Shown: positions 3,359-62,757 of the stretch, piece after piece
Layout of the letters: the number at the start of each line of letters is the position of its first letter
How positions within the stretch are numbered: position 1 is the first letter of the stretch
Program-made: the position numbers and the translations under genes
Notes under the pieces: model-generated
Seen by the model: the letters and a program-made list of their open reading frames with translations, nothing else
Told to the model about the DNA's origin: nothing
Databases searched by the model: none
Source: Eledone cirrhosa
Taxonomy: Eukaryota
Assembly (NCBI GenBank): GCA_964016885.1
Contig: OZ024746.1
Span: 91,760,001 to 91,824,000 of the forward strand
DNA: 64,000 nucleotides
Direction of reading: 5' to 3'

Positions 3359-4335
<977 letters not shown>

Positions 4336-4378
4336 TATATATATATATATATTATATATATATATATTATATATATAT

Positions 4379-4567: not shown

Positions 4568-5390
4568 ATTGGTGTGGGATGCTTAAAGTGTCCATATGCG
4601 GTATGTCGTTTGAGCACTCGATGCTCTTACAGAGCAGAATATAATATCACACAAGAAACGGAGAATCAATCGTGCGACGAATTAAAATTTATTAGACATA
4701 TTACAATCGTTTCTCTGGCGACCAGCTCGAGGCACGATCGATTCAATGATCGAACCTGACTCTGAAATCGCAAGATCCTCAGATACGTCTCGATTTTTCG
4801 AAGCAGAGTTTCCAAATGTCCAGTTAAACTTGCGGCCTTCTCTCGCAAGCTTGTGTCCTGTTGTTGTCTGTCGATGAATGGTCAAGAATTGTACACGTCA
4901 TCGGTATTTCTGACCACTCATGACCGTCATTTTTCTGGTTCCATTCATATGTCACCTGTCAATCAAAGTTGTTTCTTTTAGCAGAGTTACTGCTGTAGGA
5001 GGCAAGAGGCTGTATGTTTGGAACGCTCGCGCCCTGCCGCAGCGTTCCTGGCCTCTAAACGGCCACACCCATCTCCATGTTTCGCGCAGGCGTGATACAT
5101 ATACACACCCGCAACTGTATTATATACGAAAATCACAGTAAATATTAAATGTACAGCGAATACTTAGAAAGAATTTTTTAATGGTGGAAAAACATTTTTA
5201 AAAACAACGTTTCAGAAAAACACACCCTCAAAATACCTTAAAAGCATAAGCATGAAATCGCAAGATCCTCAGAGTCAGGTTCGATCATTGAATCGATCGT
5301 GCCTCGAGCTGGTCGCCAGAGAAACGATTGTAATATGTCTAATAAATTTTAATTCGTCGCACCACTGATTCTCCGTTTCTTATGTGATAT
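4568..5390. mobile_element. Family B fold-back element in (TA)n
   Basis: 4645-4764 is the reverse complement of 5270-5390. The left terminus aattggtgt(g/t)ggatgcttaaag is shared with 6433. Confidence 0.85.
4695..4789 (-). ncRNA. Type I hammerhead motif with long stem II (family B)
   Basis: Minus strand: gacgtat-CTGAGGA-tcttgcgatt...ggtcgccaga-GAAA-cgattg-TA-atatgtc, then taataaa. Confidence 0.8.
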
Positions 5391-6105: not shown

Positions 6106-6432
6106 AGATGAATTAAATATTTATTTTTCTTCTCTAAATGTCTAAAACACAATCTCACAGCTCATTCAACTCATACTATAGGCTGACTATGAAGGGGTGA
6201 TGCTAGAGCTGTGAAATATTGCATGCGTTAACTCTATTGTGTTTGTGTCCCGACAGAAAGTATCCAGCCTACACTGTAAATATAGTTGGTGTTAGGAAGG
6301 GTATCCAGACATAGAAACCAGTTCTGTATGAGTAAGACATAGTCATCTGACCTCACTGCTCTCATAACAGGACAACTCGTCTAACCCATGTTAAACGATG
6401 ATGATGATGGTAACATATATATATATATATAT

Positions 6433-6630
6433 AATTGGTGTTGGATGCTTAAAGCGTTCATATGCGGTAGGCCGTATGAGCACTCGATGCCCTTGTAGAG
6501 CAGAGTATGATATCTGAGAAAAAAGAGAATCAGTGTTGCGATGAAAGGAATTTATTGGACATATTACAATTGTAATATGTCCAATACATTCCTTTCATCG
6601 CAACACTGATTCTCTGTTTTCTCAGATATA
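6433..6630. mobile_element. Family B short fold-back element with its axis at HHR stem III
   Basis: Arms 6509-6569 and 6570-6630 meet at ttacaattgtaa. Flanked by TA runs. Confidence 0.9.
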
Positions 6631-6694
6631 TATATATATGTGTGTGTGTGTTGGGGATGGCCTGGATCGTCCCCCACTTAATTAGCCCCAATGT

Positions 6695-11700: not shown

Positions 11701-11995
11701 AATTCAAATTAAAAGATATATGTCTATATAGAGAGAGAAAGTCATATGTTGCTAGAGAACCTCATAGTATTTAGGAAAAAGTAGATACTTTAAGGAGGAA
11801 ATGTTATTTTCCTCCTTCAAGTATCTACTTTTTCCTCAATATCATGTGCTCTATATATATATGTACAAAATACTATGTGTTTCTTTAACAATATATGACT
11901 CTTTCTCTCTCTATATATATATATACATATAGCTTTTAATTTGAATTATTGATGCTCTGAAAAATGTCAATTGAGCTTTTCTACTGAGAAACATA
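11701..11995. mobile_element. Diverged fold-back element next to (TA)n (no HHR seen)
   Basis: aattcaaattaaaag...aggaaaaagtagatactttaaggaggaaa / tttcctccttcaagtatctactttttcct...cttttaatttgaatt. Confidence 0.75.
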
Positions 11996-18316: not shown

Positions 18317-18951
18317 GATTTTGAGTATATGTTGGTTGTATAACAACACCTCAGTATGCAGGCTGGAGCACTCGACGAAGTGCGCAGGTTGGTTTGGTTA
18401 CTCCGGAGTAATGTAAAATAAAGTTAAATAAAAAGTCAAATGTTTAAAATTTAGCTTCGTTTATTACTGCTATATATATTTCGGTGACAGCCATCTTTGG
18501 CTGTGACCTCTTCAGGCAGTCCGAATTAGTGTGGTATAGACAAGTACATATGTTGTTGAGGTGTATAATTTTGTCAATACTCTGATATGCCCAGTTCCTG
18601 GTTGGGTTGTTATTTCACTGAGGAAATAACAACCCAACCAGTTCCTCACTGAATTAACAACCCAACCAGGAACTGGGCATATCAGAGTATTGACAAAATT
18701 ATACACCTCAACAACATATGTACTTGTCTATACCACACTAATTCAAACTGCCTGAAGAGGTCACAGCCAAAGATGGCTGTCACTGAAATATATATAGCAG
18801 TAATAAACGAAGCTAAATTTTAAAGATTTGACTTTTTATTTAACTTTATTTTACATTACTCTGGAGTAACCAAACCAACCTGCGCACTTCGTCGAGTGCT
18901 CCAGCCTGCATACTGAGGTGTTGGTATACAACCAACATATACTCAAAATCT
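18317..18951. mobile_element. Family C ~635-bp near-perfect palindrome in (TA)n with HHRs at 18466-18520 (-) and 18747-18801 (+)
   Basis: Arms of about 305 bp. HHR: actgc-CTGAAGA-ggtcacagcca-aaga-tggctgtcact-GAAA-tatata-TA-gcagt, then aataaa. Confidence 0.92.
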
Positions 18952-29330: not shown

Positions 29331-29760
29331 GCAGAGGTTATATTTAATTTGTTGGGATTCAACAAGCTTAAACATTTTTATAACTGATATAAAGCACTCA
29401 ACAGATTATTGGGGTAAATACACAATATATTAATAAATGGAAACTATATTTATAAAACCATATTTATTTTATTATATATATTTCAAGGGCAACCAAGGAA
29501 AATTATGGTGCGCTTTCATCAGATAAAATACAGATTTGTTTTATAAATAAATATTGACATACCCAGAAAAAAGACAACCTTCCTATCCAGGAAGCTCCAA
29601 CCGTTAAGGTTGTCTTTTTTCTGGGTATGTCAATATTTATTTATAAAACAAATCTGTATTTTATCTGATGAAAGCGCACCATAATTTGCCTTGGTTACCC
29701 TTGAAATATATATAATAAAATAAATATCATTTTATAAATATAGTTTCCATTTATTAATAT

Positions 29761-51465: not shown

Positions 51466-51627
51466 CGAAGGAAATGTGGTAAGCAACCAGGTGGACCATA
51501 ACGCACCAAAGTACTCAATACTTAGGGTAGTAGAGTGGGTAATAGGAACGAGTAGGACCCCGACGGCTGAGCTCAAGCCGTTTCGACGGCTAATTCTGGA
51601 CTCAGTCCAGAATTAGCCGTCGAAACG
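51464..51627 (-). mobile_element. Family D terminus abutting the 3' side of the Penelope-like element
   Basis: Palindrome gtttcgacggctaattctggactcagtccagaattagccgtcgaaac, with (TA)n on the left. Confidence 0.85.
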
Positions 51628-53380
51628 AAAATTTCTTTAAGTCGTTTGGAAGCCTCGACAATGCAGATGGGTAAATCTCCGGGTAACAAGATCCGGTGGT
51701 GGAGAGAGAGATATAAGTGGGTGTACGTTGAGATGCGTGGCGTGTATAAGACTGTAACGTGTAGAGGAATGAAGCAAAGAGCGTAAAGGATAAAAATAAA
51801 AATAACAACACGAGAAAGAGTTATCTTGGGAGAGATTTAATTGTCCCTATATATTTCGGATTCACATCCATCAACTGGGTTTTTTTCCGGGGGAGATTGT
51901 CTGTCGGAAAGGTGCAAAACATGTCCTCCGCTGTTCGTTGTTTTGAATATCTGCGGTATTCAGCAGAGCGCGCGTGCGCGTGAAATGGGGTCGGTCAGGC
52001 AGAGGCCAGCGGCCGAAGTAGTTCTTTCAATTGTGGGAGTGGGGTGGCGCTAGCTGTCAGTCCATTCTCTGCCTGTTTGGTGAATGTTACTGTGTGTGTG
52101 TGTGTGCGTGTGTTGTTGTCTCGTTTGAGTGTGTGTGCGTGTGTTGTTACCTTGTTCCTCTGTATTGGCAGTGTAGTATGTTCGTATGGTGGAATGCTAC
52201 TGTGTGTGTGTGTGCGTGTGTTGCTGTCTCGCTTGTGTGTGTGTGTGCGTGTGTTGCTGCATCGTTTGTTAACTTAAACCAACCACCCCATTTCGCTTCT
52301 CTCGGATCGGTTGTTTAGTTGTGGCCCTAGGCGTTTGATCCAAAGTGCTTCCTTGATACGTAACGTGCCGACGTTTCTTTCTGTCGCTAGAATTGTGAGA
52401 ATGGGTCTTCCGTCTTTGTTTCCGCATTTGGCTATGTGTTTCCGGAAAGACGAGGCCCTGGTTTTAGTGTGTTCCTTGATCCGGATGTGCAACGGCCGGA
52501 TTGTGCTACCTATATAGTATTGGTTGCACTTGTTACATTCTATCTTATACACGACGTATGTGCGTAGGCAACAGTTCGCATGGCGCACCGGGTTGTCTCT
52601 GAGGGAGTACGCGTCAGTTGAATTCCCAGGTTTCCTGGAGAGGCATCTTCGCAGGAGGGGCCCGAGTGCGCCAGGTGGATGTCGAGGCCTTCCCTCCGTA
52701 TAGCCTTGCGGATAGCGTTGGTGGTATTCTCACCCAGGTGTGGCATTTTAAGGAAGCACTTACCTTGGGTGCCTCTCTGTCTCTTGTGTCTGGTGTCTCT
52801 TACTCTGTCTGTGAGCGAGGTAGGGTACCCGTTCGTCTCCAGCACCTCGATGAATCGCTTGGTATGAGTGACACCACTCGCGGGATCGCTGCATCTGTTT
52901 TTGATTCGCGCGATCTCGTTCGTGATGTATCCTCTTTTGGCACTGTTAGGGAGGGCGGACTTGTAGTGGACGAACAGGTCCCTGCAGGCTGCCTTTCGGT
53001 AGAAGTTGCAGTGGATCCCTCCCTGTTCCGTGATGTTGATTCGGAAGTCGAGGCGGGCAAGTGACCCGTCGTCGTTGGGGTGTTCAATACTGAAGTCAAT
53101 GTTCTTGTCCGTGTTGTTGAACGTCTCGTAGATTCTATTCGCCATGTCTTGGTAAGATGTGAGGATGAGGATATCGTTCACGTACCTTGAGAAAAAGGCG
53201 ACGGCGTTGGGGTGGCAGGCGTTGAGTGCCTTGCGCTCGAGGCTGTCCATGTAAGAGATCGCTAGCACACCCGACAGGCTTGATCCCATGAGCAGTCCCG
53301 AGGTTTGTTGGTATGTTTGGTCAAGGAATCCGAAGTAGGTGTTGTCGACGACGATGGATAGGAGTTGGTGGATGTCAGTG

Positions 53381-56713: not shown

Positions 56714-57258
56714 TTGAGTTTATGTTGGTTGTATACCAACACCTCAGTATGCAGGCTGGAGCACTCGACGAAGTGCGCAGGTTGGTTTGGTTACTCCGGA
56801 GTATTGTAAAATAAAGTTAAATAAAAGTCAAATGATTAACATTTAGCTTCGTTTATTACTGCTATATATATTTCAGTGACAGCCATCTTTGGCTGTGACC
56901 TCTTCAGGCAGTTTGAATTAGTATGGTATAGACAAGTACATATGTTGTTTAGGTGTATAATATTGTCAATACTCTGATATGCCCAGTTCCTTGTTTGGTT
57001 GTTAATTCACTGAGGAACTGGAGTCATATGACTCCAGTCATATGACTCCAGTTCCTCAGTGAATTAACAACCAAACAAGGAACTGGGCATATCAGAGTAT
57101 TGACAATATTATACACCTAAACAACATATGTACTTGTCTATACCATACTAATTCAAACTGCCTGAAGAGGTCACAGCCAAAGATGGCTGTCACTGAAATA
57201 TATATAGCAGTAATAAACGAAGCTAAATTTTAATCATTTGACTTTTATTTAACTTTAT
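56714..57258. mobile_element. Family C fold-back element in (TA)n with HHRs at 56858-56912 (-) and 57157-57211 (+)
   Basis: Highly similar to 18317-18951. Right arm shorter. Axis contains agtcatatgactcc twice. Confidence 0.92.
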
Positions 57259-62520: not shown

Positions 62521-62557
<37 letters not shown>

Positions 62558-62757
62558 GGAACAAGTAAGACCCCGACGGTTGAGCTCAAGCCGTTTCGAC
62601 GGCTAATTCTGTACTAATTCAGTACAGAATTAGCCGTCGAAAGGGCTTGAGCTCAGCCGTCGGGGTCTTACTTGTTCCTATTACCTACTCTACTACCCTA
62701 AGTATTGAGTACTTTGGTGCGTTATGGTCCACCTGGCTCCTTACCACATTTCCTTCG

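Follow-up and report, generated by a model that had tools for sequence, protein, structure and literature searches.

The 64,000-nt stretch of Eledone cirrhosa DNA analysed here (hereafter the window) carries, at 6433–6630, a 196-base head-to-head fragment of Penelope type, the arms of which meet exactly on the palindromic stem III of an RNA that is predicted to cleave itself. Across its family, stem III and the neighbouring GAAA form a real hot spot for such joins. This hot spot is minor, it does not depend on the palindrome, and the main turn-around of the family lies further upstream.

The focal fold-back and its neighbour

The two focal arms (6510–6569 and 6570–6629), recovered in a repeat search of the window, are 60 nt each and 97% complementary with a spacer of 0 nt, with mismatches at two sites (6523/6616 and 6552/6587). 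Their axis at 6569/6570 falls within ttaCAA/TTGtaa, the arms meeting in ACAA/TTGT (the slash marks the axis). In a blastn comparison, 6573–6435 aligned with 4710–4569 at 81%, the alignment beginning at A-CAATTG-TA in the focal copy and at A-CGATTG-TA in its neighbour, and the focal axis therefore maps onto the loop of stem III in the hammerhead-like motif on the minus strand (4695–4789). This confirmed the first-pass annotation, which had placed the fold-back axis exactly on stem III. The equation with the 4695–4789 copy stood in so far as the axis is homologous to its loop, but that loop (CGATTG) is not palindromic.

Family positions are numbered from the A of the GUA triplet (0), with +1 the first base past the predicted cleavage site. 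On this scale the focal axis is at −5/−4, which is 4.5 nt upstream of where cleavage is predicted, the left arm reaches +131 and the right arm +55. The insertion (L032) is flanked by its (TA)n target microsatellite on the left (6415–6433) and on the right (6630–6640). In the family, (TA)n also comes after most tails, TATATA being the commonest class (189). A 76-nt tail (6434–6509, minus strand, family +56 to +131) is present on the left arm only, and is followed by arm 1 (6510–6569, minus strand, +55 to −4), which holds the 3′ strand of stem I (6564–6558), the predicted cleavage site between 6565 and 6564 and the 3′ half of stem III. The 8-nt palindrome ACAATTGT (6566–6573), which is stem III (A15.1-CAATTG-U16.1), is common to both arms and has the axis at 6569/6570; the true break may lie at any position inside it. 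The inverted arm 2 (6570–6629, plus strand, −4 to +55) stops at the family's fixed +55 site.

Both arms carry a private 2-nt change (+49/+50) seen in no other arm compared, which on sequence evidence indicates a single template and does not separate the candidate joining routes. Of the ribozyme, each arm retains just one half of stem III together with GUA and the 3′ strand of stem I; the locus is without a whole one, and by itself it is inert scrap. An exact 26-mer fold-back on the focal axis occurred three times in a pattern search of the 3.0 Gb genome and the reversed control 0 times, hence the focal fold-back is not due to chance.

The neighbouring insertion of the same family (4569–5390) has its tail-bearing arm on the minus strand and an inverted arm at 5269–5390, and its turn-around is not at stem III. 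Its type I hammerhead-like motif (4695–4789, minus strand), with a predicted cleavage site, would fold into a 7-bp stem I (4789–4783 with 4701–4695), a CUGAGGA core (4782–4776), a long stem II of ~60 nt (4775–4714), GAAA (4713–4710), a CGATTG loop (4709–4704) and a GUA triplet with its last base at 4702. We consider this a plausible, putative hammerhead of non-canonical form. The core, GAAA and GUA occur in this order in the 4695 copy and in most of 51 aligned arms (the window copy plus 50 of 116 found via stem I and stem III motifs). Across this alignment, 95.4% of pair cells were paired vs 25–42% when slid, stems I and III being biased since the rows were chosen by their motifs, and covariation in the same motif-picked rows consisted of a single U-A to G-C change in stem II between subfamilies. 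The fold z-score of the motif was −1.65, and nothing in the window reached the gathering score of a hammerhead when scanned with Rfam. The G10.1-C11.1 pair closing stem II is absent: most copies have C-A in its place, the window copy has U-A and a second family (see below) has A-A.

Among 93 typed arms of the sample described below, the stem III loop was CGATTG in 56 and CAATTG in 21. In the 51-arm alignment many copies of the CAATTG subfamily have CCGAGGA in the catalytic core (columns 12–18), a change of U4 to C, yet the subfamily has spread, hinting that cleavage is dispensable. Ends expected from cleaved RNA (+1 to +4) were rare (1/190 tail arms, 3/125 inverted arms). At one further locus (G000:C1:119705007-119705124) a 25-nt tandem repeat runs across the cleavage site.

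Other short head-to-head repeats are present in the window at 3980–4341, 18470–18800, 29470–29715 and 56860–57210. In these, CUGANGA...GAAA cores lie close to the outer ends, with the axes well away from them. Several carry short duplications at the axis, and they are likely to be other Penelope-like families. Small near-perfect hairpins also occur at 51570–51640, 62540–62690 and 11710–11930, the first two having sequence in common.

Identity of the parent element

The focal locus is a short insertion of a Hydra-like Penelope-like retroelement into (TA)n. The tail 27-mer has 770 exact matches in the 3.0 Gb genome and a 16-mer spanning the cleavage site has 2,442. By extrapolation from these counts and our sample, the family is estimated at ~3,000 copies, of which 1,670–2,010 have an inverted arm.

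A parent reading frame was sought upstream of L014, L019, L029, L102 and L040 and was not found there, and a search for tails without a following T (16 matches) gave no read-through copy. Two copies, L145 and L149, read through past +131, the sequence homologous to the tail continuing into a reverse-transcriptase frame, and the parent frame was located downstream of L145. In L255, broken frames with RMRW, DKTG and reverse-transcriptase motifs are followed by a C-terminal GVIY..YIG, ~1.3 kb of non-coding sequence and the hammerhead again, ending at +55; its endonuclease domain has CxxC (KCKLC) and CxH (ACRH) around the GIY-YIG. The reverse-transcriptase motifs and RMRW, DKTG, KCKLC and ACRH were read by eye. 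ESM Atlas neighbours of the C-terminal domain include GIY-YIG clusters (0.93–0.95), while five L255 frame fragments gave nothing relevant in Pfam (two weak, unrelated matches) and a PDB search returned no match. L238 and L157 contain, upstream of the family B (focal family) copy, nested pieces that come from two or more other elements with reverse transcriptase/GIY-YIG, and the minus-strand frames of L237 contain fragments that, by eye, we take to resemble Helitron Rep/helicase coding sequence.

The order of reverse transcriptase and GIY-YIG in the broken frames of L255 is that of an endonuclease-containing Penelope-like element, and the arms form a pseudo-LTR (pLTR), with an adjacent inverted arm in 125 of 190 sampled copies that ends at +52 to +56 in 102 of the 125, vs +131 for the other arm. 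As in the Hydra clade, described in parts of PMC8557442, the family has RW, DKT and, at the C terminus, a GIY-YIG with CxxC and CxH around conserved E and N, targets (TA)n and carries a hammerhead in its repeat. RW is followed in L255 by S or R, not K, and of the CxCX5C linker CX5C alone is visible, across the broken frames of this one copy. Hydra elements are, however, generally <3 kb (PMC8557442), compared with a unit of ~4.3 kb with a long 3′ non-coding part in L255, and in place of a canonical hammerhead the focal family has a non-canonical one with a stem II of ~60 nt and no Rfam match. The likeness lies in motifs and target, while length and hammerhead form differ from the clade, and we therefore file the family as Hydra-like and not as a Hydra member.

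Where the arms end across the family

Our sample consisted of the first 100 listed exact-tail copies (of 770) and 98 copies with two other tail variants, from which 8 of 198 were removed as segmental or tandem duplicates, leaving 190. It excluded 55 listed places, including nine of a ten-copy series on C20, where one insertion is repeated ten times at a spacing of ~110–330 kb (G000:C20:3974500-5248396, a segmental array). Arm ends were mapped on real reference copies of the family.

The outer end of the inverted arm was exactly +55 in 94 of the 125 copies that have one. Inner ends were strongly non-uniform (chi-square p ~1e-51), the bin from −120 to −101 taking 98 of 222. Within it, the main peak at −116 to −104 contained 59/125 inverted-arm ends and 46/190 tail-arm ends, 104–116 nt upstream of the cleavage site, contrary to the view that the ribozyme defines the turn-around point. 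This peak is likely to be the 5′ end of the RNA. In copies such as L043, L048, L094 and L129 it lies directly after TAG with no preceding pyrimidine tract, therefore a transcription start is likelier than a splice acceptor. Several copies (L084, L152) have a short inverted copy of the main-peak end and then jump to the +55 arm.

Both ends fell within −12 to +1 in only 1/125 sampled copies (L164), and an independent listing (the first 100 places of the 2,442 16-mer matches) contained 0/19 head-to-head pairs with a midpoint closer than −33. Tail-arm ends in −12 to +1 were in excess in the first sample (9/57, p 0.02); with the hypothesis set beforehand, the second sample gave a non-significant 6/49 vs 3.6 expected (p 0.14).

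The inverted arm extended further upstream than the tail arm in 78/125 copies, and in 21/125 the arms had no common sequence, therefore two priming events are needed. A single self-primed cDNA, the route that the first-pass annotation had proposed, thus fails as an explanation for the family. Ordinary junctions (n = 125) comprised 43 overlaps of at least 2 nt, 30 blunt or 1-nt junctions and 52 inserts, and both arms ended together at the −110 peak in 21 cases vs 15.6 by chance (p 0.023).

LINE-1 twin priming yields an inversion from a pair of primers on a single RNA. In L053, L126 and L187 the tail arm stops at +57 beside the second start with the inverted arm abutting, and these we take to resemble LINE-1 twin-priming inversions. 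The focal family departs from twin priming in its fixed second start (+55) and in its arms, most of which overlap instead of abutting. Tail-arm 5′ ends also cluster beside the second start (+52 to +59, 12/190), a count that may be inflated by microhomology with the AT-rich target.

A minor symmetric peak at stem III

Joins were sought genome-wide with patterns in which both arms are intact and at most 30 nt lie between them, which gave 24 raw matches for the window at the cleavage site and stem III, and for windows anchored at +31, −26 and −62 gave 3, 9 and 10. We counted a join if neither end lay more than 12 nt from the anchor, dropping L257 and L272 as spurious joins across (TA)n and leaving out L260, L267 and L285, which have one end >12 nt off, together with such matches in the controls. 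There were 20 symmetric joins at stem III/GAAA, the focal locus included, vs 2, 2 and 5 in the respective controls (p ~3e-5). Corrected for opportunity across the three control windows, this is 20/29 against an expected share of 0.31 (p 2.5e-5), and counting the complex L298 as a sixth join at −62 gives p 5e-5. With independent ends, 2.4 joins with both ends in −11 to +1 would be expected (bootstrap 95% 0.5–6.4) in place of the 20. The flanks of these 20 loci have only short repeat-like matches in common.

We estimate ~40 loci with stem III/GAAA joins after correction for missed inexact copies, ~2% of inverted copies. By the first-pass annotation, a peak of the family B axes at stem III or the cleavage site would favour its model and uniform axes would speak against it: ends are indeed far from uniform and a stem III peak is real, but its share of the inverted copies is small. 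The peak lies at −4 to −11, upstream of the scissile bond, and not at the cleavage site itself, as a pattern covering +1 to +9 gave 10 matches with 0 at +1 and one with both ends near +3; the template was therefore uncleaved or religated.

By type, the 20 joins are five perfect with overlap, four with a longer tail arm, six with a longer +55 arm and five symmetric ones that keep both stem III copies. The last (L258, L263, L265, L283, L286) are blunt or insert-bearing with no priming palindrome visible, and in L263 the insert is a perfectly palindromic non-element sequence. Tiny hairpins on AA..TT around the loop mark six joins, of which four have the loop on the tail arm and two have it on the +55 arm, and in the −26 window about five of nine joins follow the stem II arms (by eye). 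Symmetry above independence is also seen elsewhere, with 7 vs 2.7 in the sample (p 0.017) and 5 vs 0.5 at −62. Rare substitutions common to both arms were not numerous enough to be informative, with three among 16 stem III loci (two of these in the focal locus) vs three among 32 others.

Role of the palindrome

The palindromic loop was not enriched at stem III joins, whether typed directly (4/17 vs 21/93 in the sample) or by a downstream marker (5–6 of 20 joins vs 17/66). Other palindromes present in most copies (CTCGAG, CGATCG, ATCGAT) gave 0 perfect joins among nine matches. A second, larger family with 2,885 exact arms and ~840 head-to-head pairs (extrapolated from 29 per 100) has an 8-nt palindromic stem III, on which only two fold-backs were found, ~0.2% of pairs. 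The stem III peak is thus not caused by the palindrome, and these results speak against the idea that self-priming on it is what turns the copy around. Once an end falls on the palindrome, it does set the exact centre, as in three exact cases in the focal family.

The second family (L305–L334, with L300 and L303 at G000:C3:26493032 and C5:132709987) is young and high-copy, with its own tail and long inverted arms. Its hammerhead-like motif is CUGAUGA ... GAAA-CACGTG-UC, with a stem II of ~80 nt and A-A at its foot, which together with the focal family suggests a long-stem-II variant of the hammerhead.

How the arms may be joined

The reading that we favour, at about even probability, combines cDNAs from two starts on uncleaved RNA with an occasional stall past stem III, a snap-back and pairing with the other cDNA. 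The architecture and the two fixed outer ends are observed directly, and two cDNAs were likely primed at the fixed starts +131 and +55 of the element RNA; two priming events would match the in vitro result, described in part of PMC11167929, that a pair of internal starts defines the tail. Both focal arms pass the scissile bond, therefore the template was not cleaved there, and a template RNA uncleaved at the ribozyme is likely for the family. Copying would likely stall now and then just past stem III, at GAAA before the long stem II, which is where the minor symmetric peak is seen. The stalled end would then likely snap back onto the nearest self-complementary letters, the 8-nt palindrome in the focal case, and the new sense strand may pair with the other cDNA, closing the insertion. 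Snap-back of either cDNA would account for both polarities, the AA..TT hairpins, the joins on stem II arms, the mirrored insert of L263 and the general excess of symmetry.

The polarity of the stem III joins excludes the single-cDNA version only, and by sequence snap-back and end-joining are inseparable. Somewhat unlikely, in our judgement, is that the cDNAs from +131 and +55 both halt close to stem III, whether on the same RNA or on one with its 5′ end there, and are joined directly without snap-back, the palindrome giving an overlap only. Joining via microhomology or repair would yield both polarities and the symmetric joins (10/20) alike, would explain the five blunt or insert-bearing symmetric joins, and is in keeping with the mixture of overlaps, blunt ends and inserts at ordinary junctions and with the above-chance pairing of ends at the −110 peak. 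It would nevertheless require a common stop to give the 6- to 8-fold excess over independent ends, and the palindromic insert of L263 is easier to see as one strand copied from the other. The scheme of a single cDNA that halts near the cleavage site and primes itself on the palindromic stem III, the +55 end arising from later endonuclease trimming, we regard as improbable. It fits the focal junction exactly, as well as the three exact fold-backs genome-wide and the two in the second family, and junction palindromes are interpreted as self-priming in parts of Arkhipova 2013 (PMC3846280). Against it are the single stem III turn among 125 sampled inverted copies, the tail arms shorter than their inverted arms and the behaviour of palindromic loops, other palindromes and the second family. 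As a family-wide rule, stem III self-priming is refuted by the same rarity of the turn, the unenriched palindrome and the longer inverted arms.

Palindrome-linked deletion is an established phenomenon, and a longer inverted repeat could have collapsed later by replication slippage between two copies of ACAATTGT acting as an 8-nt direct repeat. Such a collapse predicts a perfect centre and either polarity, as found, but also that the 8-nt palindromic subfamily be strongly enriched and that other palindromes show collapses. Neither was found, and the joins retaining both stem III copies are left unexplained; we give this collapse little credence. An assembly or library artefact is very improbable. 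Amplified libraries can yield perfect zero-spacer palindromes through fold-back chimeras, but the focal arms differ at two sites and have their ends, with (TA)n on either side, at the two positions fixed in the family, and the same turning position recurs at 20 loci whose flanks differ and whose junction types vary.

Relation to known systems and significance

In the account of Craig 2021 (PMC8557442), Penelope-like elements have inverted repeats, placed head-to-head and bearing a tail, as a standard feature. With the published endonuclease-containing elements, as covered in parts of that review and of PMC3846280, the focal family shares the 5′-truncated inverted copy placed head-to-head, the tail on one arm and (TA)n, and differs in a tail of 76 nt rather than 30–40 bp. 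Compared with published pLTR elements, its junctions have been mapped in 125 copies, with one major and one minor hot spot, and its non-overlapping arms argue for two priming events. Minimal type I Penelope hammerheads, to judge from parts of Cervera and de la Peña 2014 (PMC4209133), where palindromic stem III loops are described, likewise have the CUGANGA/GAAA core, an unpaired base at the foot of stem II and a stem III of 1–2 bp with a short, often palindromic loop. Unlike these, the focal family has a much longer stem II, C-A replacing G10.1-C11.1, a loop that is palindromic in about a quarter of copies, and CCGAGGA in many copies of one subfamily.

An experimental parallel in its starts and template is the Anolis Poseidon element PAc, for which Frangieh 2024 (PMC11167929) describes two fixed internal reverse-transcription starts defining the tail, AT-rich targets and uncleaved RNA as the main substrate in vitro. 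The parts of that study drawn on here contain no mapping of 5′ head-to-head joins or of a ribozyme stall, and those of a 2026 retrozyme preprint do not treat junctions. A literature search confined to main texts, few of them from subscription journals, returned no report of junctions at hammerhead stem III. Self-priming at palindromic Penelope junctions is already in print (PMC3846280), and the proposed stem III stall is a modest addition to it. Section 15 of Craig 2021 poses the formation of the inverted repeats and the role of the hammerhead as open questions. On these the focal family provides countable evidence, in the form of two priming sites at fixed positions, a template left uncleaved, a main turn-around near −110 and a minor symmetric hot spot at stem III/GAAA, and the stall-and-snap-back step thereby becomes testable in the existing in vitro system.

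We suggest tentatively, and with less than even confidence, that a folded, uncleaved hammerhead may make the Penelope reverse transcriptase pause, that snap-back may prime the second strand and stitch together oppositely primed cDNAs, and that the long-stem-II hammerhead may be a variant that Rfam misses. If the reading of pause and snap-back is true, thousands of junctions would read out how the second strand is made in Penelope transposition, together with an effect of the ribozyme that is not catalytic.
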